DNA of 64,000 bases from Patescibacteria group bacterium (GCA_024654575.1 JANLHG010000005.1:1260-65259); one strand, 5' to 3'. Counted from the stretch's first letter, positions 5,780 through 52,092 are shown. The notes: generated from the sequence alone by a model not told the origin. Numbers and translations: made by a program.

Positions 5780-7018
5780 TCAATAATTCTTTAGCAACTC
5801 TAAAGCCTTATTCATTTGTGGGTCAATTTTCTTATCTATATCAGTCTGAGATATTTTAACTTCATAATCCGGCTTTAAACCTCCTTCAGAAATGGAATTA
5901 CCTTTTGGAGTAAGCCACCTTGCGACTGTTACTTTAAGAGACGTATCTGAAGTTATAGGAACAAGTTCTTGAACAGAACCTTTACCAAAGGTTTTCGTAC
6001 CAACTAACTTGACAATACCATGTTCTTGTAATGCACCTGCCAAAATCTCTGATGCTGAAGCCGAACCTCCATCAACTAAAATAATAAAATGTAAATTAGA
6101 AAAAACATTATATCCCCTACTTCTGTATATTTTATCATCACCGTTTTTACCAAAATCTTCAGTCACAACAATTTTTCCACTTGGTAAAAACCAACTCGCC
6201 ATGTCCACCGATGCTTCAAGATAACCTCCTGGATTACTACGAAGATCTAAAATCAGTTTTTGGGAACCTGATTCATAAAATTGTCTCAATGCATTTCTAA
6301 ACAGGTCAGGAGAATTAGCAGAAAAACTATATAATTTAATTACAAAAACACCATCTTTTCTTAATTCGGTGTCAATAGTTGGTAAATCAATAGTATCTCT
6401 AGTTATTTTGACATCAAACGGTGCTTTTATACCTTCACGAAAGACATTAAGAGTTACTATAGTCCCCTTTTTACCTCTAATGAAACTAACCGCATTATCC
6501 GTAGACATGTCAATTGTACTGGTAGCATTTATTTTAACAATTTTATCTCCCACCTTAATTCCAGCCTTTTCGGCAGGACTACCTTTCAAAGGAGCGACTA
6601 CTGTTAATATTTGGTCTTTCAGAGCAATCTCCATTCCAACTCCTTCAAAATTCCCAGCGATATCACTTTCAAATATTTTTGATTCTTTAGGAGGAAAAAA
6701 AACTGTATAAGGGTCACCCATTGAGCTAGCTAGTCCTTGCATAGCACCCCAAATTCTCTCTTGATCATTTGGAATTGGTTTTGAAGAAACATATTTTTCA
6801 GTTAAAATTGACCATTCTTTCCAGAATGGAGAAAGGTCTACAGAATTTATATTTGCAACATTTATTCGGTTTTTAGAACCAGCATAAGCACCGGCCATAA
6901 ATACCAAACCTAAAATCACCATCGCCACCACTACTGACGAAACATATTTCAAATATTTATTATTCATAAGTAAAAATATTATATCATATGCTATAATATT
7001 TTCTATTATGGTCATCAA
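5780..7018 (-). CDS. ctpA: Carboxyl-terminal processing protease (peptidase S41, CtpA/Prc-like) with PDZ domain
   Basis: Has an N-terminal TM segment and a PDZ-like region (GIKVGDKIVKIN). The S41 catalytic region is LRSNPGGYLEASVDMASWF. Confidence 0.85.
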   Translation of the reverse strand: MMTIIENIIAYDIIFLLMNNKYLKYVSSVVVAMVILGLVFMAGAYAGSKNRINVANINSVDLSPFWKEWSILTEKYVSSKPIPNDQERIWGAMQGLASSMGDPYTVFFPPKESKIFESDIAGNFEGVGMEIALKDQILTVVAPLKGSPAEKAGIKVGDKIVKINATSTIDMSTDNAVSFIRGKKGTIVTLNVFREGIKAPFDVKITRDTIDLPTIDTELRKDGVFVIKLYSFSANSPDLFRNALRQFYESGSQKLILDLRSNPGGYLEASVDMASWFLPSGKIVVTEDFGKNGDDKIYRSRGYNVFSNLHFIILVDGGSASASEILAGALQEHGIVKLVGTKTFGKGSVQELVPITSDTSLKVTVARWLTPKGNSISEGGLKPDYEVKISQTDIDKKIDPQMNKALELLKNY

Positions 7019-8345
7019 ACTTCACAACACATTGTCTGGAGAAAAAGAAGAATTTAAACCTCTCAATGAAGGAAAGGTTGGTATTTATAATTGTGGACCA
7101 ACAGTTTACGATATTGCACACATAGGAAATCTCAGAACTATGGTTTTTTATGACATTATCAGAAGAATATTTGAATATAATGAGTATAAAGTAGAACAAG
7201 TGATGAATATTACAGATGTTGATGATAAAACAATCCGTAAAAGTATCGAAGAAAAAATAACACTCACTGAACTAACAGAAAAATATGAAAAGCTTTTTTT
7301 TGAAGATATTGAAAAACTCAATATTATTAAACCACAAAAAATACTTTCTGCCAGAGCACATATGTCAGAAATTATAGAACTTATATCAACACTAATTAAA
7401 AATGGTTCAGCATACGAAGCGAGTGACGGAATCTATTTTAAAATTTCAAATTGTAAAAACTACGGATTACTAGCTAGATTAAAATTAGATAAACCGACTC
7501 AAGAAAGAATAGAAAATGATGAGTATGATAAAGAAAACCCTCGTGATTTTGCTTTATGGAAGTTTTATAAAGAAAATGACGGAGATGCAGTGTGGACCGC
7601 GCCCTTCGGGCGCGGTCGCCCTGGTTGGCATATTGAATGCTCAGCTATGGCTATAAAATCACTAGGAGACACGCTTGATATCCACGCTGGTGGAAGTGAT
7701 TTGATTTTTCCTCATCACACAAATGAAATCGCTCAGTCAGAATCAGCAACTAGAAAAACCTTTGTAAACTATTGGCTTCATGGAGGAATGATGAATGTTC
7801 AAAGTGACAAAATGGCGAAATCAAAAGGTAATTTTCTAAAATTAAAAGAGTTAATTGAAGAAAAAATATCACCCCTCGCATATCGTTATTGGCTTCTTAC
7901 TGCACATTATCGAACACAAATTAATTTTACTTTTGAAGCAGTTTCAGCATCTCAAACCGCATTAATAAACTTTTGTAATTATTTTATGGCATTTGGAGAA
8001 AAAAGTGGTGAAATTGATATAGATTACAATAATAAATTTATTGACTTCATAAATAACGATTTGGATATGCCTAAGGCAGTAGCTCTGGCTTGGGAATTGA
8101 TTAAAGATAAAAATATTTCAAACGAAAACAAAAAAGCTACTCTATTAAAATTTGACGAAGTATTCGGATTAAAATTAAAAGACCTAAAAATTCCTGATAA
8201 TAATGAAGAGATACCAGAAGAAATCAAGTTTTTGATTGAAGAAAGAGAAAATGCCCGCAAAGCTAAAGATTTCAAAAAATCCGACGCCCTAAGGAGTGAA
8301 ATAGAAGCTAGAGGGTATAAAGTCAAAGATATACCCTTATCTTAA
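7008..8345 (+). CDS. cysS: Cysteinyl-tRNA synthetase
   Basis: YNCGPTVYDIAHIGNLRT contains the HIGH region. RPGWHIECSAM is the Zn/cysteine-binding motif. KMAKSKGN is the KMSKS motif. Confidence 0.92.
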   Translation: MVIKLHNTLSGEKEEFKPLNEGKVGIYNCGPTVYDIAHIGNLRTMVFYDIIRRIFEYNEYKVEQVMNITDVDDKTIRKSIEEKITLTELTEKYEKLFFEDIEKLNIIKPQKILSARAHMSEIIELISTLIKNGSAYEASDGIYFKISNCKNYGLLARLKLDKPTQERIENDEYDKENPRDFALWKFYKENDGDAVWTAPFGRGRPGWHIECSAMAIKSLGDTLDIHAGGSDLIFPHHTNEIAQSESATRKTFVNYWLHGGMMNVQSDKMAKSKGNFLKLKELIEEKISPLAYRYWLLTAHYRTQINFTFEAVSASQTALINFCNYFMAFGEKSGEIDIDYNNKFIDFINNDLDMPKAVALAWELIKDKNISNENKKATLLKFDEVFGLKLKDLKIPDNNEEIPEEIKFLIEERENARKAKDFKKSDALRSEIEARGYKVKDIPLS

Positions 8346-8507: not shown

Positions 8508-9005
8508 ATGACATTCAAAAACGAAGAATTCGTAATCAACAACGGGCCGTCAAAGATCGATCTTATGTTTTCCTTATTCGATACTGACATGGGAAAGCGG
8601 ATGTTAGAATTTCACACGCCTCAGTGGGTTCACACCCACGATGCGAATGATTTCAAAGTTCAGATTACTTCCGCACGAAGACGAAATCCGGCGGCGACGA
8701 TCTGGGAGATCGAAGGAATCACTGACGCTCAAGGTGGGAAGACGCGAGTCTCCATCTATTATCTCTCGGACACCCGCGAAGGTCGCATGAGGTTCGAGGA
8801 AGAGCTTCGGACTCATGGCATCATGGAAACGCCGGACGACGCCAAAAGAGCAAGGGCCCTCATGATCATCATCCAGAAGATGGTGGCCATCGCTCAGTAT
8901 CACGGCGGCTTGCCCGAAGAGTTCTACGTCCTGTTCGAGAAGGCAAAAAAAATCAAATTTGCCGAAGATCGTGATTCACTCACTGAAGCTGTCAAAGGCA
9001 TCTAA
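8508..9005 (+). CDS. Hypothetical protein (165 aa), compositionally foreign (about 50% GC against a roughly 30% background)
   Basis: Strong RBS AAAGGAG 8 nt upstream of the ATG. It has its own promoter and terminator. Codons are GC3-rich, unlike the neighbours. No recognisable motif. Confidence 0.6.
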   Translation: MTFKNEEFVINNGPSKIDLMFSLFDTDMGKRMLEFHTPQWVHTHDANDFKVQITSARRRNPAATIWEIEGITDAQGGKTRVSIYYLSDTREGRMRFEEELRTHGIMETPDDAKRARALMIIIQKMVAIAQYHGGLPEEFYVLFEKAKKIKFAEDRDSLTEAVKGI

Positions 9006-9138: not shown

Positions 9139-10524
9139 ATGAACACCAAAACCATTCAACCTAGGAGTTTAAGAATTCCTCCACAAAATATTGATGCTGA
9201 AAAAGCAGCTCTTGGTTCTATTATGTTAAGACCTGAAGCAATGCACGATGTAGTTGATATTATTCGTGGAGAATCTTTTTATGCAGAAAAACACCGACTC
9301 ATCTGGCAAACAATGCTTGATTTACAAAGCAAGAGTTCTCCTATTGATTTACTTTCTCTTTCTTCACGACTTAAAGAAAAGGGTTTATTAGACGCAATTG
9401 GCGGAATGTCGTATCTCACAGAAATTGCAGGTTTTGTCCCCTCTTCTACAAACGCAAACCATTATGCCGAAATTGTTCAAAAAAAATATATGATGCGGAG
9501 TCTAATTAATGCTTCGGAATATATTGGAGAGTTAGGTTTTGATGAAGCAGGAGAACTTGAAGAACTTTTGGAAAAAGCGGAAAAAAGAATTTTCGAAGTG
9601 ACAAATTATTCCGGTATTCATAAGTTTATTGAACTTAAAGATACTCTAGTTGAAGCATGGGATAGACTTGACACTCTTCACAAATCTAAAGATGAAATGA
9701 GAGGTGTTTCAACTGGTTTCAAAGAATTAGACCTAAAACTTGCTGGTCTGCAAAAATCCGACCTCATTATTCTAGCTGCTCGACCTTCTATGGGAAAAAC
9801 ATCTCTAGCTCTTGATATTGCTCGAAAATCAGCCACAAATCATAATGTGCCAGTAGGAATATTTTCTCTTGAAATGAGCTCCCAACAATTAGTAGATAGA
9901 ATGCTTGCCGCAGAATCACAGGTTGATTCTTGGAAACTACGAACTGGACAGAATCTTTCAATTGAGACAGATTTCAAACATATTCGTGATGCAATGGATA
10001 AATTATCAAAAGCACCGATTTATATTGATGATCAACCCGGAAATAACATTTTAAAAATGCGTTCTGTCGCACGACGTCTTAAAAGTGAAAAAGGATTAGG
10101 TCTAATTATCGTTGATTATTTACAATTAATGGTCCCAACTCAAGCACGACATTCCGACAATCTTGTTCAGCAAGTGACAGAAATATCTCGCTCTCTTAAA
10201 AATCTAGCCAGAGAATTAGATATCCCCGTTTTAGCCCTTTCTCAACTTTCTCGAGCCGTTGAACAACGTGGAGGTAGACCTCGCCTATCGGACTTGCGAG
10301 ATTCTGGTTCTATTGAACAAGATGCGGATGTGGTAATGTTTATACATCGTGAAGATAAATATAATGAAAATTCTGAAAGACCAAATATTGCCGAAATTCT
10401 TATCGAAAAACACAGAAATGGTCCTACTGGAAAAGTAGAACTATATTTTGATGAAAAGAAAACGACTTTCCTTAGTGTAGAAAAAACAGATTTCAAAGAT
10501 TTTGATAAAGAAGGAGGATTTTAA
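9139..10524 (+). CDS. dnaB: Replicative DNA helicase DnaB
   Basis: The N-terminal domain is PPQNIDAEKAALGSIML. The RecA-like core has Walker A (ARPSMGKTSLAL) and the LIIVDYLQLM motif. Length is 461 aa, so there is no intein. Confidence 0.92.
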   Translation: MNTKTIQPRSLRIPPQNIDAEKAALGSIMLRPEAMHDVVDIIRGESFYAEKHRLIWQTMLDLQSKSSPIDLLSLSSRLKEKGLLDAIGGMSYLTEIAGFVPSSTNANHYAEIVQKKYMMRSLINASEYIGELGFDEAGELEELLEKAEKRIFEVTNYSGIHKFIELKDTLVEAWDRLDTLHKSKDEMRGVSTGFKELDLKLAGLQKSDLIILAARPSMGKTSLALDIARKSATNHNVPVGIFSLEMSSQQLVDRMLAAESQVDSWKLRTGQNLSIETDFKHIRDAMDKLSKAPIYIDDQPGNNILKMRSVARRLKSEKGLGLIIVDYLQLMVPTQARHSDNLVQQVTEISRSLKNLARELDIPVLALSQLSRAVEQRGGRPRLSDLRDSGSIEQDADVVMFIHREDKYNENSERPNIAEILIEKHRNGPTGKVELYFDEKKTTFLSVEKTDFKDFDKEGGF

Positions 10525-25547: not shown

Positions 25548-26003
25548 ATGGAAAATTGTGTTTTTTGTAAAATCGTAAGTGGCGAACTGCCTTGCTACAA
25601 AATATGGGAGGATGAAAAGCATTTAGCTTTTCTTTCCCGCAACCCCAACACGGAAGGTTTTTCAGTTGTCATAACCAAAGAGCACTATCCGAGCTATGCA
25701 TTCGATCTTCCTGATCAGGTTTTAACCGACCTTATTCTTGTAACAAAGAAAGTCGGAAAGTTGATTGATTCTAAACTTGATGATGTCGGAAGAACCGGCA
25801 TGATCTTTGAAGGATTCGGAGTTGACCATATCCATGCCAAACTTTTCCCAATGCATGGTACAAAAGATATGGGAGAGTGGAAGTCGATGAAATCCAATGT
25901 GGACAAGTATTTTGAAATCTACGAAGGATACATCTCTTCCCATGATTATAAACCCTCAACTAACGAAGAGCTTGCGAAAATTGCTTCTAAGTTCAAGCAG
26001 TAA
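25548..26003 (+). CDS. HIT-family (histidine triad-like) hydrolase
   Basis: The N-terminus is CVFCKIVSGELPCYKIWEDEKHLAFL. The HIT-like motif is VDHIHAKLFP. Confidence 0.55.
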   Translation: MENCVFCKIVSGELPCYKIWEDEKHLAFLSRNPNTEGFSVVITKEHYPSYAFDLPDQVLTDLILVTKKVGKLIDSKLDDVGRTGMIFEGFGVDHIHAKLFPMHGTKDMGEWKSMKSNVDKYFEIYEGYISSHDYKPSTNEELAKIASKFKQ

Positions 26004-26086
26004 TTTTTATAAAACCGAAAGTCAATCTAACGAGTAGGTTTTTTTATGGTATAATTTAGTAAATTCAAATAACATAAATAAAATAT

Positions 26087-26503
26087 ATGAAAATAGAAAA
26101 AATTGTTATGTTCTTACTTCGTTTGGTTATGAGTTTTACTTTTCTTTGGGCATTTTTTGATAAGGTCTTTGGTTTAGGTTTTGCTACTACCGCAGATAAG
26201 GCATGGATTAACGGAATATCACCAACTTATGGTTTTTTGAAATTTGCATCAAAAGGTCCATTCGTTGAAATATTTCATAATCTAGCCGGTGTAGTTTTAG
26301 TTGATTGGTTATTTATGCTTGGTCTTCTTTTTGTTGGTCTTGCTCTCATTTTCAACAGATTTATAAAATTAGGATGTCTTGCTGGAATTTTAATGATGGC
26401 ACTTATGTATCTAGCTTTGCTTTTCCCAATAAACAATCCTATTATTGATGAGCATATTGTTTATATTCTAGTTCTAGCCCTTATAGCTATCAAAAAAGAA
26501 TAA
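26087..26503 (+). CDS. DoxX-like small integral membrane protein
   Basis: A 138-aa protein with four predicted TM helices. Confidence 0.4.
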   Translation: MKIEKIVMFLLRLVMSFTFLWAFFDKVFGLGFATTADKAWINGISPTYGFLKFASKGPFVEIFHNLAGVVLVDWLFMLGLLFVGLALIFNRFIKLGCLAGILMMALMYLALLFPINNPIIDEHIVYILVLALIAIKKE

Positions 26504-33760: not shown

Positions 33761-33792
33761 AAAAACCAAACACTCGGTGTTTGGTTTTGTGA
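33761..33792. terminator. Bidirectional Rho-independent terminator between convergent genes
   Basis: aaaaaccaaacac-tcg-gtgtttggtttt is a perfect 10-bp stem flanked by an A-run and a T-run. Confidence 0.65.
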
Positions 33793-33813
33793 TTTGTGTG
33801 TTCTAGTTTCGTC

Positions 33814-34950
33814 TCAACCAACAAGTTTCCATAGAAGCTCAGTTCCTCCTTTGAAGACTTGGACTTCTCCGACTTTCTGCGGAACGACAAGCGCCCCGCG
33901 TTCGATCGTCATCATCTCCGAGCTCACTTCCATGCCATAAAGCGCGAGGAAGTTTTCGGAAAGGAACGGACCGAGATGTTCGAGTGCGTTGTCCTGGTCG
34001 AAGGTCATCGTGTAGAGCTCAACGGCCGAGGGAGCGGTGAAGATGCCAGCCGCACAGCCATAGCAGCGAGACTTTGCACTTTCATCGTGAGGAGCGGAAT
34101 CCGTTCCTGCTCCGAAGCGACGATTACCCGAAGTCACATACTGCCGGACTTTTGCACGATGCGTTTCGCGCTTCGGCACAGGCTTGCAGTAGTGGCCAGG
34201 ATTCATCCCACCCCAGAACATGGCGTTGCGATTAATCATCAGATGATGAGCAGTCACAGTCGCATGGATATCGTGATCGACTTCTGCGACGAAGTCGGCC
34301 GCTCGTCCATCGGTGAGATGTTCGAAGACCACCGGCAATCCTGGAAAGGACTTGAGGATGGGCTTGAGGTCGCGGTCCACGGAAACGCTCTCGCGATCGA
34401 ATTCGTCGACATCTTCCTCGACTGCTTCGAAGTGTCCAAGCAATGGGATTTTGTGTTTCTCCATCACCTCGAACACCGGATAGCGACCAAGAAGATTCTT
34501 CACGCCGTGCGCCGAGCCAGTGGTGCCACCCTGGCCTTTTTGATTGGCCATGTAGAGCTTCACCGCTCGCCAAACACCTTCTTCGAAACCGCGCACGACT
34601 TCTTCAGGATCGATATGATCCGTCAGATACAGCGTCATGCAAGGCACGAAGTCGTAATCCTTCTTCCAATACCATTCTTGTCCTTTCGGAGCATTAGTAT
34701 TGAAGCGTAAACTCGTCATAACTTGTTCGATCTCTTTACGGTAATCTTTCGCTTTTTCAATCGTCGTTACCGGGTCAGCAAGGTTTGGCATGATAATCGC
34801 CCCCGTTGCATGCTGTTTGAGTGTACACGGAAGAACGGTCTTGAGCATATCACCACTTCGAAGGTGAAGATGACGGTCAAACCATCGAGGTATTGTTACC
34901 GAGTTTTCTTTCATGAGTTTTCCTTTTTGATAAACGATGTGGGTTTCCAC
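33814..34950 (-). CDS. pyrC: Dihydroorotase, type II (E. coli PyrC-like); GC-rich foreign composition
   Basis: FDRHLHLRSGDMLKTVLP, AIIMPNLADPVTT, CMTLYLTDHIDPEEVVRGFEEGV, PLLGHFE, VVFEHLT, GTDSAPH and CYGCAAGIFTAPSA align motif-by-motif to E. coli PyrC. DNA is about 55% GC. Confidence 0.9.
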   Translation of the reverse strand: METHIVYQKGKLMKENSVTIPRWFDRHLHLRSGDMLKTVLPCTLKQHATGAIIMPNLADPVTTIEKAKDYRKEIEQVMTSLRFNTNAPKGQEWYWKKDYDFVPCMTLYLTDHIDPEEVVRGFEEGVWRAVKLYMANQKGQGGTTGSAHGVKNLLGRYPVFEVMEKHKIPLLGHFEAVEEDVDEFDRESVSVDRDLKPILKSFPGLPVVFEHLTDGRAADFVAEVDHDIHATVTAHHLMINRNAMFWGGMNPGHYCKPVPKRETHRAKVRQYVTSGNRRFGAGTDSAPHDESAKSRCYGCAAGIFTAPSAVELYTMTFDQDNALEHLGPFLSENFLALYGMEVSSEMMTIERGALVVPQKVGEVQVFKGGTELLWKLVG

Positions 34951-35780
34951 GGAGTCCGCAGATGAATTGCACCGAAGCCGATCGCTTTCGCGCCGAGCCT
35001 CCTAAGCTTTTCCATGTCTTCGAATTCCATGATACTTGGACCGATCACAGGAAGCGATCCTTGTTTAGCGAGAGCTTCGACTGCCGCCCAGTTGTGTTTC
35101 TGTGCCGGTTTGCCGGAGACGCCTCCGCCTCCACCACCGACTTGTTTTTCGAGCTTCGCTAAAGGGGTCTGCCCGCTGTTAGTAAAGACCGTCTTCCACG
35201 GCACGCTGTTGAGGGAAACCGCTTCCGCGATTCCGACAAGTCCGCGTGCAATAGTGAGATAGTCCTGATCAGCCGAGACTTTGACGATTACGGGGTGACG
35301 CGAAGCGCGTTTGACCGCCTTCACACTATTCACCACCATTTCTGCCTGTTCGATTGCATGGCCAGTATTCGGACACGAGACGTTGACTTCAAGCGCAACG
35401 ATATCGAAGCGATTGAGCATCTCCGCCATTTCCACCAGTTCCTTTTCATCGCCGAAAATTGATCCGGCTGTTGGGAACTTTTTGAAATCGAGTTTGGGAC
35501 CGACTTCTCGGCACCACCACTCGACACCAGGATTAGTGAGCCCAACTTTATTGACCGCTCCGCCTGGAATCAGGCGAACGCAGGTCCAAGGCTTCCACCA
35601 TCGTAGGTTTCCGATACGCGGGTTGCGCGTCAGAGATTTGATGACTACAGTGAAGAGTTCGGGCTTGATGAGACCGAGCCACACCAGTGGCCGTTCCCAA
35701 GGCCAGCCCTTGCCATCAAAGGCAAGAGCGCCGCTTGCAACCATGTATTTGAACGCATGTCCGTTTGATAATGTGATCAT
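34911..35780 (-). CDS. pyrD: Dihydroorotate dehydrogenase, class 1 (Cys active site, PyrD 1A-like); GC-rich foreign composition
   Basis: Contains NKVGLTNPGVEW, ALEVNVSCPNTGH (NxSCPN), GGGGGVSGKP and a C-terminal GFGAIHL. It overlaps pyrC by 40 nt. Confidence 0.85.
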   Translation of the reverse strand: MITLSNGHAFKYMVASGALAFDGKGWPWERPLVWLGLIKPELFTVVIKSLTRNPRIGNLRWWKPWTCVRLIPGGAVNKVGLTNPGVEWWCREVGPKLDFKKFPTAGSIFGDEKELVEMAEMLNRFDIVALEVNVSCPNTGHAIEQAEMVVNSVKAVKRASRHPVIVKVSADQDYLTIARGLVGIAEAVSLNSVPWKTVFTNSGQTPLAKLEKQVGGGGGGVSGKPAQKHNWAAVEALAKQGSLPVIGPSIMEFEDMEKLRRLGAKAIGFGAIHLRTPWKPTSFIKKENS

Positions 35781-35870
35781 AGGATCTCCGTTTGTTGATC
35801 GTTTTAAATGTTCATTTCCATTCTGACATTACCTTATCTCAAAGTTATTTAATAGTAAAGATATGTTATA

Positions 35871-36251: not shown

Positions 36252-36298
36252 CATTGTCAATGTTGCATATATTTATCAATTTTGTACAATATGTACAT
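36252..36298 (+). promoter_or_regulatory. Operator/promoter region of the YefM-MazF module with two palindromes
   Basis: acattg-t-caatgt is a perfect 6-1-6 inverted repeat. TGTACA-ATA-TGTACA lies immediately upstream of the antitoxin start. Confidence 0.45.
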
Positions 36299-36299
36299 T

Positions 36300-36551
36300 A
36301 TGAAAGTCGTTACAACAACCACAGCTCGCAAAAATATTGGTAATATGATTAATCGAGTAAAATACTCAGGTGAAGTTTTTGGTATTGGTCGTCGTAATTC
36401 TATTGATGCATTACTTATTAAATTTCCAAACACATATAATAAAGAACTTAATGACATCACTAATGTAAACGCCAATTCAGGAAGTTTTGATTTTTTAGCT
36501 GATGAACCAGAAATTTATTCAGTAGCCGATCTTCGTAAAAAGTATGTCTAA
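36300..36551 (+). CDS. Phd/YefM-family antitoxin
   Basis: MKVVTTTTARKNIGNMINRV…GEVFGIGRRNSIDALLI follows the YefM/Phd N-domain pattern. It overlaps the toxin start by 8 nt. The ORF track's upstream extension uses a TTG start. Confidence 0.6.
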   Translation: MKVVTTTTARKNIGNMINRVKYSGEVFGIGRRNSIDALLIKFPNTYNKELNDITNVNANSGSFDFLADEPEIYSVADLRKKYV

Positions 36552-36870
36552 AGGTACAATAATACTTACTCCTTTTCCATTTACAGATTTGTCAGGAAAT
36601 AAAGTTCGCCCAGCACTTGTTTTACATAATCAAAAAGATGGAGAAGATTGTATAGTAGCTTTCATATCGTCAATTAAAAATAAAAAATCTATAATTCATG
36701 ATATTCCAGTAATAGCAACAAAGAATAATGGTTTCAAAATAAATTCTACAATTAAAATTTCAAAAATTGCTACACTTCAAAAGACAATAATTCTTGGTGA
36801 AATTGGAAATCTAGAATCGTCAATTATGACAAAAGTTGATAATGCACTAAAAAATATATTTAAGATTTAA
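36544..36870 (+). CDS. mazF: PemK/MazF-family endoribonuclease toxin
   Basis: GTIILTPFPFTDLSGNKVRPALVL matches the MazF/PemK signature (…G.E…RPalVvs). Length is 108 aa. Confidence 0.7.
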   Translation: MSKGTIILTPFPFTDLSGNKVRPALVLHNQKDGEDCIVAFISSIKNKKSIIHDIPVIATKNNGFKINSTIKISKIATLQKTIILGEIGNLESSIMTKVDNALKNIFKI

Positions 36871-51258: not shown

Positions 51259-51876
51259 TTATGCAATGATGTATTTCATCACCTCATCTCTCGTTTCTGA
51301 AGTGATTTTTTTCTTACCGACAAAGAACTCCAATGTTTCGCTGAGCTTGGCGACAGCGATAACCATTCGATCTTTATTTAACTCAATAAGCCCACCTTGT
51401 TCCCGATCGTACAAAACGAGGGTGGCGACTACTTCCAATCCATTCGCTTCGACTGATTTGATGGCTTCGCGTTTGGTATCGGCTTTGGTGATGAGGTCGT
51501 CAATCAACACAACTTTTTTACCTTTTTCAAAAGGATCTAAAATTGTGGAAGTGATATGACGACCTTCCTCATTCTCAACCTTTTGGATACGCAAATGAGG
51601 TTTACTTACAGCTTTGGCAAACGCTTTACCAATCGGCTCGCCGGCGTTGGGGATACCAATGACATAATCGAAGTCAGTAATTCTTTCCTGAACAACAAGG
51701 TCATGCAGAATATCTCCAGCTAAAGCGTAGAGCCATTCTGGCAATTCTCTGATGTTGAGATAAATCGGCGACAGTGGTGCCGTCGGATTTTTCTCGTGCA
51801 ATTTCAATCTGAAAGCACCGAACTTGATCTTTGCCAAATTGAGAAGACTCATATGGAGATACTCTTTTGCTTGCAT
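51259..51876 (-). CDS. pyrE: Orotate phosphoribosyltransferase
   Basis: The N-terminus is FGAFRLKLHEKNPTAPLSPIYLNIRE. The PRPP-binding motif is KKVVLIDDLITKADT. Length is 205 aa. GC is intermediate, about 45%. Confidence 0.75.
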   Translation of the reverse strand: MQAKEYLHMSLLNLAKIKFGAFRLKLHEKNPTAPLSPIYLNIRELPEWLYALAGDILHDLVVQERITDFDYVIGIPNAGEPIGKAFAKAVSKPHLRIQKVENEEGRHITSTILDPFEKGKKVVLIDDLITKADTKREAIKSVEANGLEVVATLVLYDREQGGLIELNKDRMVIAVAKLSETLEFFVGKKKITSETRDEVMKYIIA

Positions 51877-52021
51877 AATCCTTTGTCAATTTTGAATACG
51901 AATTTACATCGCATTCTATATATCAGAATAGGTCTGACATACTCTGCTGTAATATTTACATGAAGATTACTATATAGTCAAATCTGTGACCCCATAGGCA
52001 AGACCTATGGGGTAGAATTTG

Positions 52022-52092
52022 TTGCCGGACTTGGATTCGAACCAAGATAACATCCTCCAGAGGGATGTGGCCTACCATTAGCCGATCCGGCA
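52022..52092 (-). tRNA. tRNA-Gln (anticodon CTG)
   Basis: The minus-strand cloverleaf has acceptor TGCCGGA/TCCGGCA, anticodon stem CATCC/GGATG with loop CTCTGGA, and T arm CTTGG-TTCGAAT-CCAAG. A palindromic hairpin (ccccatagg…cctatgggg) lies downstream. Confidence 0.8.

Follow-up and report, generated by a model that had tools for sequence, protein, structure and literature searches.

In the 64,000-nucleotide (nt) stretch of a Patescibacteria group bacterium analyzed here (GCA_024654575.1 JANLHG010000005.1:1260-65259; hereafter the window, to whose positions all coordinates refer), a block of 2 kb contains only two open reading frames (ORFs), both on the minus strand: pyrD', encoding a divergent protein of the dihydroorotate dehydrogenase (DHODH) family, and pyrC, encoding a type II dihydroorotase. 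The composition, boundaries and genomic context of this block make it likely that it is a two-gene pyr operon, horizontally acquired from a GC-richer relative within the phylum. The block (33807-35814) has a GC content of 52.2%, versus 32.9% in the remainder of the window, 33.9% in the 10 kb to its left and 32.3% in the 10 kb to its right; local 150-bp windows within it reach 0.58-0.61 GC, and the highest value of any other 2008-bp window in the 64 kb is 40.1%. A preliminary description of this DNA had already pointed out the block, which is real, although the 55% GC given for it was slightly high. The deviation extends to the GC content of third codon positions (GC3), which is 0.57 in pyrD' (z 4.6) and 0.55 in pyrC (z 4.5) versus 0.232 +/- 0.072 in the 65 other ORFs of a greedy set of 67 non-overlapping ORFs that includes these two. 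The anomaly is thus located at synonymous sites and amino acid composition is not its cause. With GC3 z values of 4.5-4.6 and the top GC content of any 2-kb window in the 64 kb, the block deviates from its host as expected for a genomic island, and the many antisense ORFs within it are, as first proposed, artefacts of composition.

The limits of the block are given by the reach of nucleotide homology to pyrD'-pyrC cassettes found elsewhere. Alignments obtained by blastn with loci L001-L005, at 86-92% identity, all end at 33807-33816 and 35780-35814, and the flanks are unmatched. At its widest, the homology reaches 7 nt past the stop codon of pyrC and 34 nt ahead of the start codon of pyrD'. 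Both boundaries are in intergenic DNA just beyond intact ORFs. On the pyrC side the adjoining element is a host-side terminator, which corresponds to the bidirectional terminator previously noted on the 3' side; it is a hairpin that separates pyrC from the convergent gene of a 125-aa membrane protein and lies outside the transferred block.

On TIGR00856 (pyrC_dimer), the pyrC product scored 297 bits against a cutoff of 292.95 in an alignment that extends over positions 2-340 of the 341 in the profile, and it matched the solved type II dihydroorotases 4lfy and 1j79 with E values of 5e-78 to 5e-75. Its segments DRHLHLR, IIMPNL, AVKLY, GSAHGV, LLGHFE and GTDSAPH align with the matching residues of 4lfy, and at the sequence level the zinc ligands and substrate residues are in place (HxH, the VKLY context of the carboxylated Lys, two His, the Asp/His of GTDSAPH, and Arg/Asn/His). 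The HLHLR, AIIMPNL, CMTLYLTD, GTDSAPH and CYGCAAG motifs initially listed could all be located in the translation. PyrC is thus predicted to catalyse the interconversion of carbamoyl-aspartate and dihydroorotate. It resembles the TIGR00856 enzymes (1j79 and 1xge of E. coli, and 4lfy) in its full-length match, same length and domain order, but differs from typical type II proteins in that it scores only 4 bits above the cutoff and has no Pfam Amidohydro_1 match at E 0.01. In addition, it differs from these enzymes by two features, namely a 5-residue insert after VKLYMA and a lineage-variable loop of 18-27 residues (34655-34737), precisely at which the blastn alignments with L001, L005 and L009 break. 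Known type II pyrC genes stand alone, whereas that of the window is part of a two-gene cassette with pyrD'.

PyrD' clearly belongs to the Pfam family PF01180 (DHO_dh; 68.5 bits, gathering threshold 27), but all NCBIfam pyrD equivalogs require scores far above those it attains (91 vs 269 for PRK07259 and 75.6 vs 270 for TIGR01037), the best being around one third of what is required. It does not group with class 1A (23 bits vs 301 on NF002702) or with class 2, given that its catalytic base is Cys and not Ser and that its best score on PRK05286 is 35 vs 267; the protein begins only 15 residues ahead of the first barrel strand, which bears on the N-terminal domain of class 2 enzymes. Its place in class 1 is indicated by C136, the counterpart in the alignment of the Cys in the NISCPN loop at the active site of 1ep1. 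Along with K48, N77, N133, K167 and N191, this residue is invariant across 24 homologs, and the whole set aligns with active-site positions of Lactococcus lactis DHODB. The AlphaFold2 model of PyrD' is a TIM barrel (pLDDT 79.6, pTM 0.83), whose best match in the PDB is the PyrD subunit of L. lactis DHODB (TM-score 0.71, 23% identity); dihydropyrimidine dehydrogenase and class 1A enzymes rank next.

The class 1B enzyme L. lactis PyrDB (1ep1/1ep3/5ue9) is thus the top match of PyrD' both by sequence (E 1.4e-14) and by fold, and the two proteins have in common the TIM barrel, the N-x-S-C-P-N Cys loop, the Lys/Asn residues and a GG-x-SG loop. However, their identity is only 23-24%, and while canonical class 1B pyrD is found directly behind pyrK, PyrD' comes without PyrK: tblastn with three PyrK proteins (E <= 1e-3) gave no match in the window or in loci L001-L167, and neighbourhood clustering of 81 loci revealed no conserved third gene that could provide an electron-transfer partner or a transporter. 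PyrD' also has an invariant I-G/A-P-S-x-M where canonical class 1 proteins have the G-x-G-G loop that binds the phosphate of flavin mononucleotide (FMN), and carries Trp-rich insertions relative to them, including a 5-residue one (LRWWKPW). Class 1A enzymes (L. lactis PyrDA, trypanosomatid DHODH), which are likewise single-subunit, Cys-base proteins of similar size without a partner gene, would by analogy be the closest functional model for a PyrK-less class 1 protein, although their sequence similarity to PyrD' is weak (E about 1e-4). The original class 1 assignment therefore holds as regards the NVSCPN motif, the poly-Gly loop and the Cys base, with the qualification that the protein is too divergent for any curated pyrD equivalog and has no PyrK. 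Based on its sequence, DHODH activity of PyrD' is likely. Only 176 of 1.84 billion cluster representatives match it at E <= 1e-30, indicating that it represents a small, distinct subfamily. Members of this family (P0121, P0138-P0140, P0148, P0154 and P0165) are named 'hypothetical protein' by NCBI and dihydroorotate dehydrogenase by JGI, so that pathway reconstructions based on NCBI names can undercount the pyrimidine capacity of Paceibacteria.

The two genes had been described as overlapping by 40 nt, a figure that arises from the first in-frame GTG (34950). The true overlap is 4 nt: in the sequence GAAAACTCATGAAAGAA (longer, AAGGAAAACTCATGAAAGAA) the pyrC ATG at 34914 shares ATGA with the TGA of pyrD', and the stretch AAGGAAAA lies upstream. 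An identical 4-nt overlap has been annotated by gene callers in L162-L167. The ATGA arrangement, a classic one for translational coupling, is likely the site of such coupling here. The earlier view that both genes travel as a unit is supported.

Several lines of evidence indicate that the pair does not share the history of its surroundings. Across 80 loci, the 10 kb to either side of the pair never encode any of the 27 proteins that flank it in the window. In a neighbour-joining (NJ) tree the window falls within a shallow crown clade along with L001-L005 (bootstrap 97/100), where PyrD' proteins are 96-98% identical and gene GC is 0.53-0.55 although flank GC varies from 0.33 to 0.55. The nearest copy, in L001 (Kaiserbacteria GWA2_52_12), is the sole compositional match in that clade, with a gene GC of 0.54 and flanks of 0.54-0.55. 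More broadly, in 52 Patescibacteria loci gene GC3 follows flank GC3 (r 0.67) with a mean excess over the flanks of +0.09, and an excess >0.2 is limited to the window, its near relatives L003, L005, L008 and L011 (L065 being at 0.20), and L067.

The site itself was analyzed with a murG-anchored scan of metagenomes, which provided 80 murG loci; the pyrD'-pyrC pair is present in none of them. The closest syntenic host relative, L081 (86% identity in MurG), is about 80% identical at the nucleotide level on both sides of a variable slot, with L081 2408-5364 matching window positions 39126-36156 and L081 7592-8079 matching 33315-32825. In L081 this slot, located between the cupredoxin and LPXTG-protein genes, is occupied by a cupredoxin that has diverged, by DoxX and by a pyrF-pyrE fusion, so that a close relative has other genes instead of the block at the syntenic site. 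The synteny check suggested at the outset for the sortase-to-cupredoxin interval thus supports acquisition, and together with the statistical GC3 deviation and the boundaries it bears out the proposal that the block is of foreign origin relative to the surrounding DNA. The number of synonymous substitutions per site (dS) between the pair and its counterparts in L001, L003 and L005 is 0.39-0.63, lower than the 0.8-1.3 obtained between window and L081 for the host genes murG, ftsW-like, doxX, LPXTG and pyrE; the values for two short toxin-antitoxin genes are 0.48 and 0.66. Divergence and genomic context are therefore incongruent, with copies 86-92% identical in nucleotide sequence, lower dS than host genes, flank GC from 0.33 to 0.55 and no common flanks. 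The ratio of nonsynonymous to synonymous substitution rates (dN/dS) is 0.04-0.06 for pyrD' and 0.09-0.10 for pyrC, evidence that both are under purifying selection. The features of the locus and the other elements discussed here are compiled in Table 1.

Table 1. Location of the pyrD'-pyrC block and other features in the window.
Feature	Position	Strand	Observations
Transferred GC-rich block	33807..35814	-	Reach of nucleotide homology to pyrD'-pyrC cassettes elsewhere; GC 0.522
pyrD', 289-aa divergent class-1-type Cys-base DHODH-family protein	34911..35780	-	PF01180, residues, AlphaFold2 model
pyrC, 366-aa type II (E. coli-type) dihydroorotase	33814..34914	-	From ATG at 34914; TIGR00856, PDB matches
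ATGA stop/start overlap pyrD'/pyrC	34911..34914	-	Read from the sequence
Variable loop insertion in PyrC (KEIEQVMTSLRFNTNAPKGQEWYWKKD)	34655..34737	-	AT-richer, 0.37 GC; no counterpart in 4lfy
Retained 3' end of cassette leader, with GGAGA ribosome-binding site	35781..35814	-	Alignment A2
Variable slot versus L081	33316..36155	.	In the window: 5' part of cupredoxin gene, pyrD'-pyrC, 125-aa membrane-protein gene
Bidirectional intrinsic-terminator hairpin	33762..33788	.	12-bp stem, T runs on both strands
'pyrE', orotate phosphoribosyltransferase-type phosphoribosyltransferase	51259..51876	-	PF00156, 38 bits; GC3 0.45
Deletion junction in pyrE	51863..51877	-	T-ATG-CAA-GCA-AAA-GA
tRNA-Gln(CTG)	52021..52092	-	Directly upstream of truncated pyrE
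DoxX-like membrane-protein gene	26087..26503	+	L081 ortholog (80% aa) inside the slot; marks rearrangement

These data are best explained by a scheme in which a compact cassette, consisting of pyrD'-pyrC and in some cases also pyrE and pyrF, would be old in the Patescibacteria class Paceibacteria and would have been repeatedly swapped among its members. The copy in the window would belong to a young, GC-rich allele clade whose composition fits Kaiserbacteria-like genomes of about 52-55% GC, and the donor was probably another Patescibacterium of that kind. Entry into a genome of ~33% GC would postdate the divergence of the host from the closest relative known, and would have occurred in a recombination-prone slot from the cupredoxin gene to the sortase-substrate gene, and the block would not yet have been ameliorated. 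The lateral origin put forward in the preliminary description is therefore retained, whereas the high-GC donor it invoked is, according to the homolog search and the flanks of L001, more likely another Patescibacterium, of moderately high GC. As for the vehicle, no relative of PyrD' appeared in IMG/VR viral contigs, and INPHARED phages and PLSDB plasmids gave only canonical DHODH, with <31% identity in alignments that span most of PyrD' (35% in a partial match over 58%). With no integrase, att repeats, phage or plasmid in evidence, DNA uptake followed by illegitimate or short-homology recombination seems the most likely route.

Direct import of the pair from a high-GC organism outside the lineage, for instance among Proteobacteria or Actinobacteria, is an improbable source. 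It could be invoked on the grounds that type II, to which PyrC belongs, is the E. coli/proteobacterial type and that the sole non-Patescibacteria with PyrD' are the high-GC genera Lichenihabitans and Lichenibacterium (61-67% identity, 66-74% GC), but the block is at 52% GC, these Alphaproteobacteria combine PyrD' with another PyrC subtype, ~28% identical to that of the window, and their clade is nested in Patescibacteria (77/100), which points to export rather than import; moreover, each protein has hundreds of homologs at 67-100% identity, and the named ones among the best 120 of each are all from Patescibacteria. Ancient vertical inheritance, with GC held high by selection related to expression or mRNA structure, appears slightly less plausible still and is largely refuted. 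It had been anticipated that the same GC in all relatives would point to ancient, highly expressed genes, and to the letter this is what is found in many of them, where the pair is at 0.50-0.55 GC regardless of host GC; the mean GC3 excess over flanks and the strong purifying selection would also fit. Nevertheless, AT-rich orthologs with GC3 of 0.25-0.30 exist in the AT-rich hosts L016, L023, L032, L044 and L078, so that high GC is not intrinsic to the gene and selection for GC can be ruled out as the cause of the anomaly. Synteny is lacking even where the protein is 96-98% identical, and the dS of the pair to unrelated genomes is lower than that of host genes to the closest relative. The AT-rich versions, and the presence of other genes in the slot of L081, indicate that the shared GC of relatives results from recurrent transfer. 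An assembly chimera, or a contaminant joined into an AT-rich contig, is the least credible of these alternatives: the composition does switch sharply at both ends and the source is metagenome-assembled, but two precise joins 2 kb apart would be needed inside a 129.5-kb contig, the boundaries fall in intergenic DNA next to intact ORFs, with a host-side terminator beside pyrC, and GC-rich pyr islands in AT-rich flanks recur in the independent assemblies L003, L005, L008, L011, L065 and L162.

There are, on the other hand, several observations that weigh against acquisition of a functional pyr operon within the phylum. Neither mobility genes nor insertion scars accompany the block: there is no integrase or transposase among its two ORFs, no tRNA was found at the insertion site, and no significant direct or inverted repeats were found flanking it. 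The dS of ~0.4-0.6 to the nearest copies implies that the true donor is not among the sampled genomes, and since only two close genomes are available, gain here as opposed to loss in L081 is inferred rather than demonstrated. In PyrD', G-P-S replaces the canonical G-G-G of the FMN-phosphate loop and the score is below the cutoff of every curated pyrD equivalog. Finally, loss of the pyrF domain from pyrE, described below, could reflect decay of the pathway in this genome, and a de novo role also depends on the status of carAB, pyrB and pyrF beyond the 64 kb covered here.

Patescibacteria are usually modelled as pyrimidine auxotrophs, and the pair had been initially regarded as notable for the lineage. 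It is not exceptional there, in view of its hundreds of homologs at 70-97% identity in Paceibacteria, often with pyrE and pyrF; the named groups are Taylor-, Kaiser-, Staskawicz- and Vogelbacteria, and Paceibacterota. Context was surveyed in 80 species-representative loci. A PyrC-family amidohydrolase gene follows pyrD' in 70 of 81 loci, and clustering of these 81 identified pyrC and pyrE as the only recurrent functional partners, to which the tblastn survey adds pyrF; an ABC-F ATPase gene is adjacent in 18. The cassette is accompanied by pyrE/pyrF in many Patescibacteria (L005, L008, L018, L019, L029, L015 and L162), and in L005 it forms a 3.6-kb pyr island of 54-58% GC within flanks of 33% GC. 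A pyrB-like match beside pyrC was obtained only in L016 among Patescibacteria cassettes. A threonyl-tRNA synthetase-like gene is located divergently upstream (~1.9 kb) of pyrD' in six loci (L002, L007, L023, L026, L068 and L076), a neighbourhood that may mark an older, vertically inherited context.

Two PyrC subtypes are paired with PyrD'. The PyrD' of L002 is 96% identical to that of the window and its PyrC only 27%, and nucleotide homology between both loci ends at the pyrD'/pyrC junction, a breakpoint which indicates that the cassette is modular. The combination of a PyrD' 76-96% identical to that of the window with the other dihydroorotase subtype (27% identical; 223 bits on TIGR00856) was seen in L002 (9777-11743) and also in L007, L014 and L026. 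Approximately 20 loci are from Lichenihabitans/Lichenibacterium, lichen-associated Alphaproteobacteria of 66-74% GC that include two cultured species, and most of these have an operon pyrD'-pyrC(subtype 2)-pyrF-pyrE-pyrB with native composition (in Lichenibacterium minor, L034 10001-14611); in some of these loci, including L038, pyrC was not detected between pyrD' and pyrF. In the NJ tree with class 1B outgroups, the alphaproteobacterial PyrD' proteins form a single clade (75/100) that branches from within the diversity of Patescibacteria. From this topology, which has moderate support, the PyrD' family seems to be indigenous to Patescibacteria and to have been exported once to Alphaproteobacteria.

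Outside the block, the gene identified as pyrE encodes a protein of the orotate phosphoribosyltransferase (OPRT) type, as the preliminary description had it, but is apparently a truncated remnant of a pyrF-pyrE fusion. Its product scores 50.5 on TIGR00336, under the cutoff of 106.8, with pyrE still as the best match, and is 82% identical in amino acid sequence (79.6% in nucleotides) to residues 247-449 of the fusion protein of L081, i.e. at the level of host divergence. Intact fusions (PF00215 plus PF00156) are found in L081 (6181-7578), where the copy is in the slot matching that of pyrD'-pyrC in the window, and in L015 (6116-7471); the OPRT halves of these two are the nearest relatives of the pyrE product. 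The first 15 nt at the junction, ATG included, are identical to the start of both fusions, homology is picked up again 243 codons further on, and in L081 the segment that the window lacks has AAAGA at either end. The matching start, the 243-codon gap and the AAAGA repeats point to a microhomology-mediated, in-frame deletion of the orotidine monophosphate (OMP) decarboxylase domain. Compared with fusions of the NF004034/PRK05500 type, the OPRT half matches NF004034 positions 344-470 and the entire decarboxylase domain (243 codons) is gone. Thus, as judged from these alignments, it is quite probable that the gene is a pyrF-pyrE fusion minus its OMP-decarboxylase half, although stand-alone pyrE relatives also exist, which weighs against a fusion remnant. 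The remaining OPRT is under purifying selection, with a dN/dS of 0.09 versus L081. Since tRNA genes are common integration targets, the neighbouring tRNA-Gln(CTG) may mark how the truncated pyrE moved.

In agreement with what had been noted before, tblastn and profile hidden Markov models run on the six-frame translation found neither pyrB nor pyrF in the window. Its genes span the route from carbamoyl-aspartate to OMP, where PyrC would carry out step 3 of uridine monophosphate (UMP) synthesis, from carbamoyl-aspartate to dihydroorotate, and PyrD' would carry out step 4, from dihydroorotate to orotate, as a PyrK-independent, Cys-base, FMN-type enzyme. The window has no genes for steps 1, 2 and 6; in particular, the lack of the pyrF domain in pyrE leaves the last step to UMP without a gene there. 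This raises the question of whether the pair was acquired for something other than de novo synthesis, either as a shortcut from host-supplied dihydroorotate or carbamoyl-aspartate to orotate, or for the reverse reactions, as in clostridial orotate fermentation. Dihydroorotase and DHODH reactions are both reversible, which would make the latter feasible; pyrB and carAB are missing from the window, the pyrB-like match in L016 is the only one beside pyrC among Patescibacteria cassettes, and the OPRT of the window has no OMP-decarboxylase partner. Moreover, the lineage has been described as lacking nucleotide biosynthesis (PMC12455944; PMC5220378). Against such a role, the recurrent linkage to pyrE/pyrF, and to pyrB in L016 and Lichenibacterium, points to UMP, and one Parcubacterium is reported to have a de novo pyrimidine pathway that is nearly complete (PMC5220378). 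On balance we regard a function other than de novo synthesis as rather unlikely, with perhaps a minor share of the probability.

Equally tentative is a wider interpretation, according to which PyrD' would be an unrecognised, PyrK-independent branch of class 1 that, together with PyrC, constitutes a self-contained, mobile 'orotate module' among episymbiotic Patescibacteria, exported once to Lichenihabitans/Lichenibacterium, with the altered FMN-phosphate loop and a new electron acceptor for PyrD' as part of it. If true, cells without the carbamoyl-phosphate and aspartate-carbamoyltransferase steps could turn host-derived carbamoyl-aspartate or dihydroorotate into pyrimidines, and the new electron acceptor would bear on how dihydroorotate is oxidized in anaerobic, quinone-less symbionts.

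Patescibacteria have been reported to exchange genes frequently, both with each other and with other bacteria, and genes for nucleotide metabolism such as thyA are among those exchanged (Gios et al., mSystems 2025, PMC12455944). The groundwater islands of that study resemble the block described here in that genes are exchanged within the phylum, and differ from it in that the latter is a tight 2.0-kb two-gene unit with no mobility genes. The text of that article contains no occurrence of pyrimidine, dihydroorotase/dihydroorotate, orotate, pyrD or pyrC, and the searchable literature yielded nothing on a pyrD'-pyrC cassette or a PyrD' subfamily, only general statements on horizontal gene transfer and pyrimidines in Patescibacteria. 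A horizontally transferred island with two well-known enzymes is in itself no major surprise, the donor being a relative and the cassette common in the class. Of greater interest are a divergent DHODH that lacks PyrK, the modular way in which pyr genes have been shuffled at a single slot of sister genomes, the erosion of pyrF and the apparent export to Alphaproteobacteria. The presence of different halves of the pathway in the same slot of two close relatives suggests that gain, shuffling and erosion are ongoing, and the locus offers a clean, datable case in which genes have moved between Patescibacteria that differ widely in base composition.

Upstream of pyrD', a conserved leader of ~80 nt is present in a subset of Patescibacteria, of which the window keeps only the last 34 nt. 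It consists of a variable hairpin followed by an invariant one, AGCAC-GGCTTAGT-GTGCT, about 45-60 nt ahead of the ATG. Alignment A4 of the leader comprises L001 112-224, L003 9891-10003, L004 625-737, L006 4494-4606, L008 9891-10003, L015 3850-3962, L021 1533-1645 and L161-L164. In the variable hairpin (helix 1), three of five pairs show compensatory changes, and shuffle controls were not decisive. A motif search allowing up to 3 mismatches gave 0 matches to these conserved upstream hairpins in the window; Rfam had no match for the leader of the relatives and identified only two tRNAs in the window. The leader may represent a promoter element or else a cis-regulatory RNA not yet described.

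Other genes near the slot or of deviating composition were also noted. The DoxX-like gene listed in Table 1 adjoins a gene of the HIT family whose GC3 is elevated (0.41, z 2.5), and the region comprising both (25548-26503, plus strand) may have received part of the ancestral slot content. Between murG and the slot lie a PemK/MazF toxin gene and a Phd/YefM-like antitoxin gene (36282-36870, plus strand; L081 4663-5251), whose products are 80-93% identical in L081, which places them outside the acquired block. A second GC-rich islet is located at 8508-9005 on the plus strand (GC 0.49; GC3 0.60, z 5.1), between cysS (7008-8345) and dnaB (9139-10524). It encodes a 165-aa protein with no Pfam match and is probably a further acquired gene.

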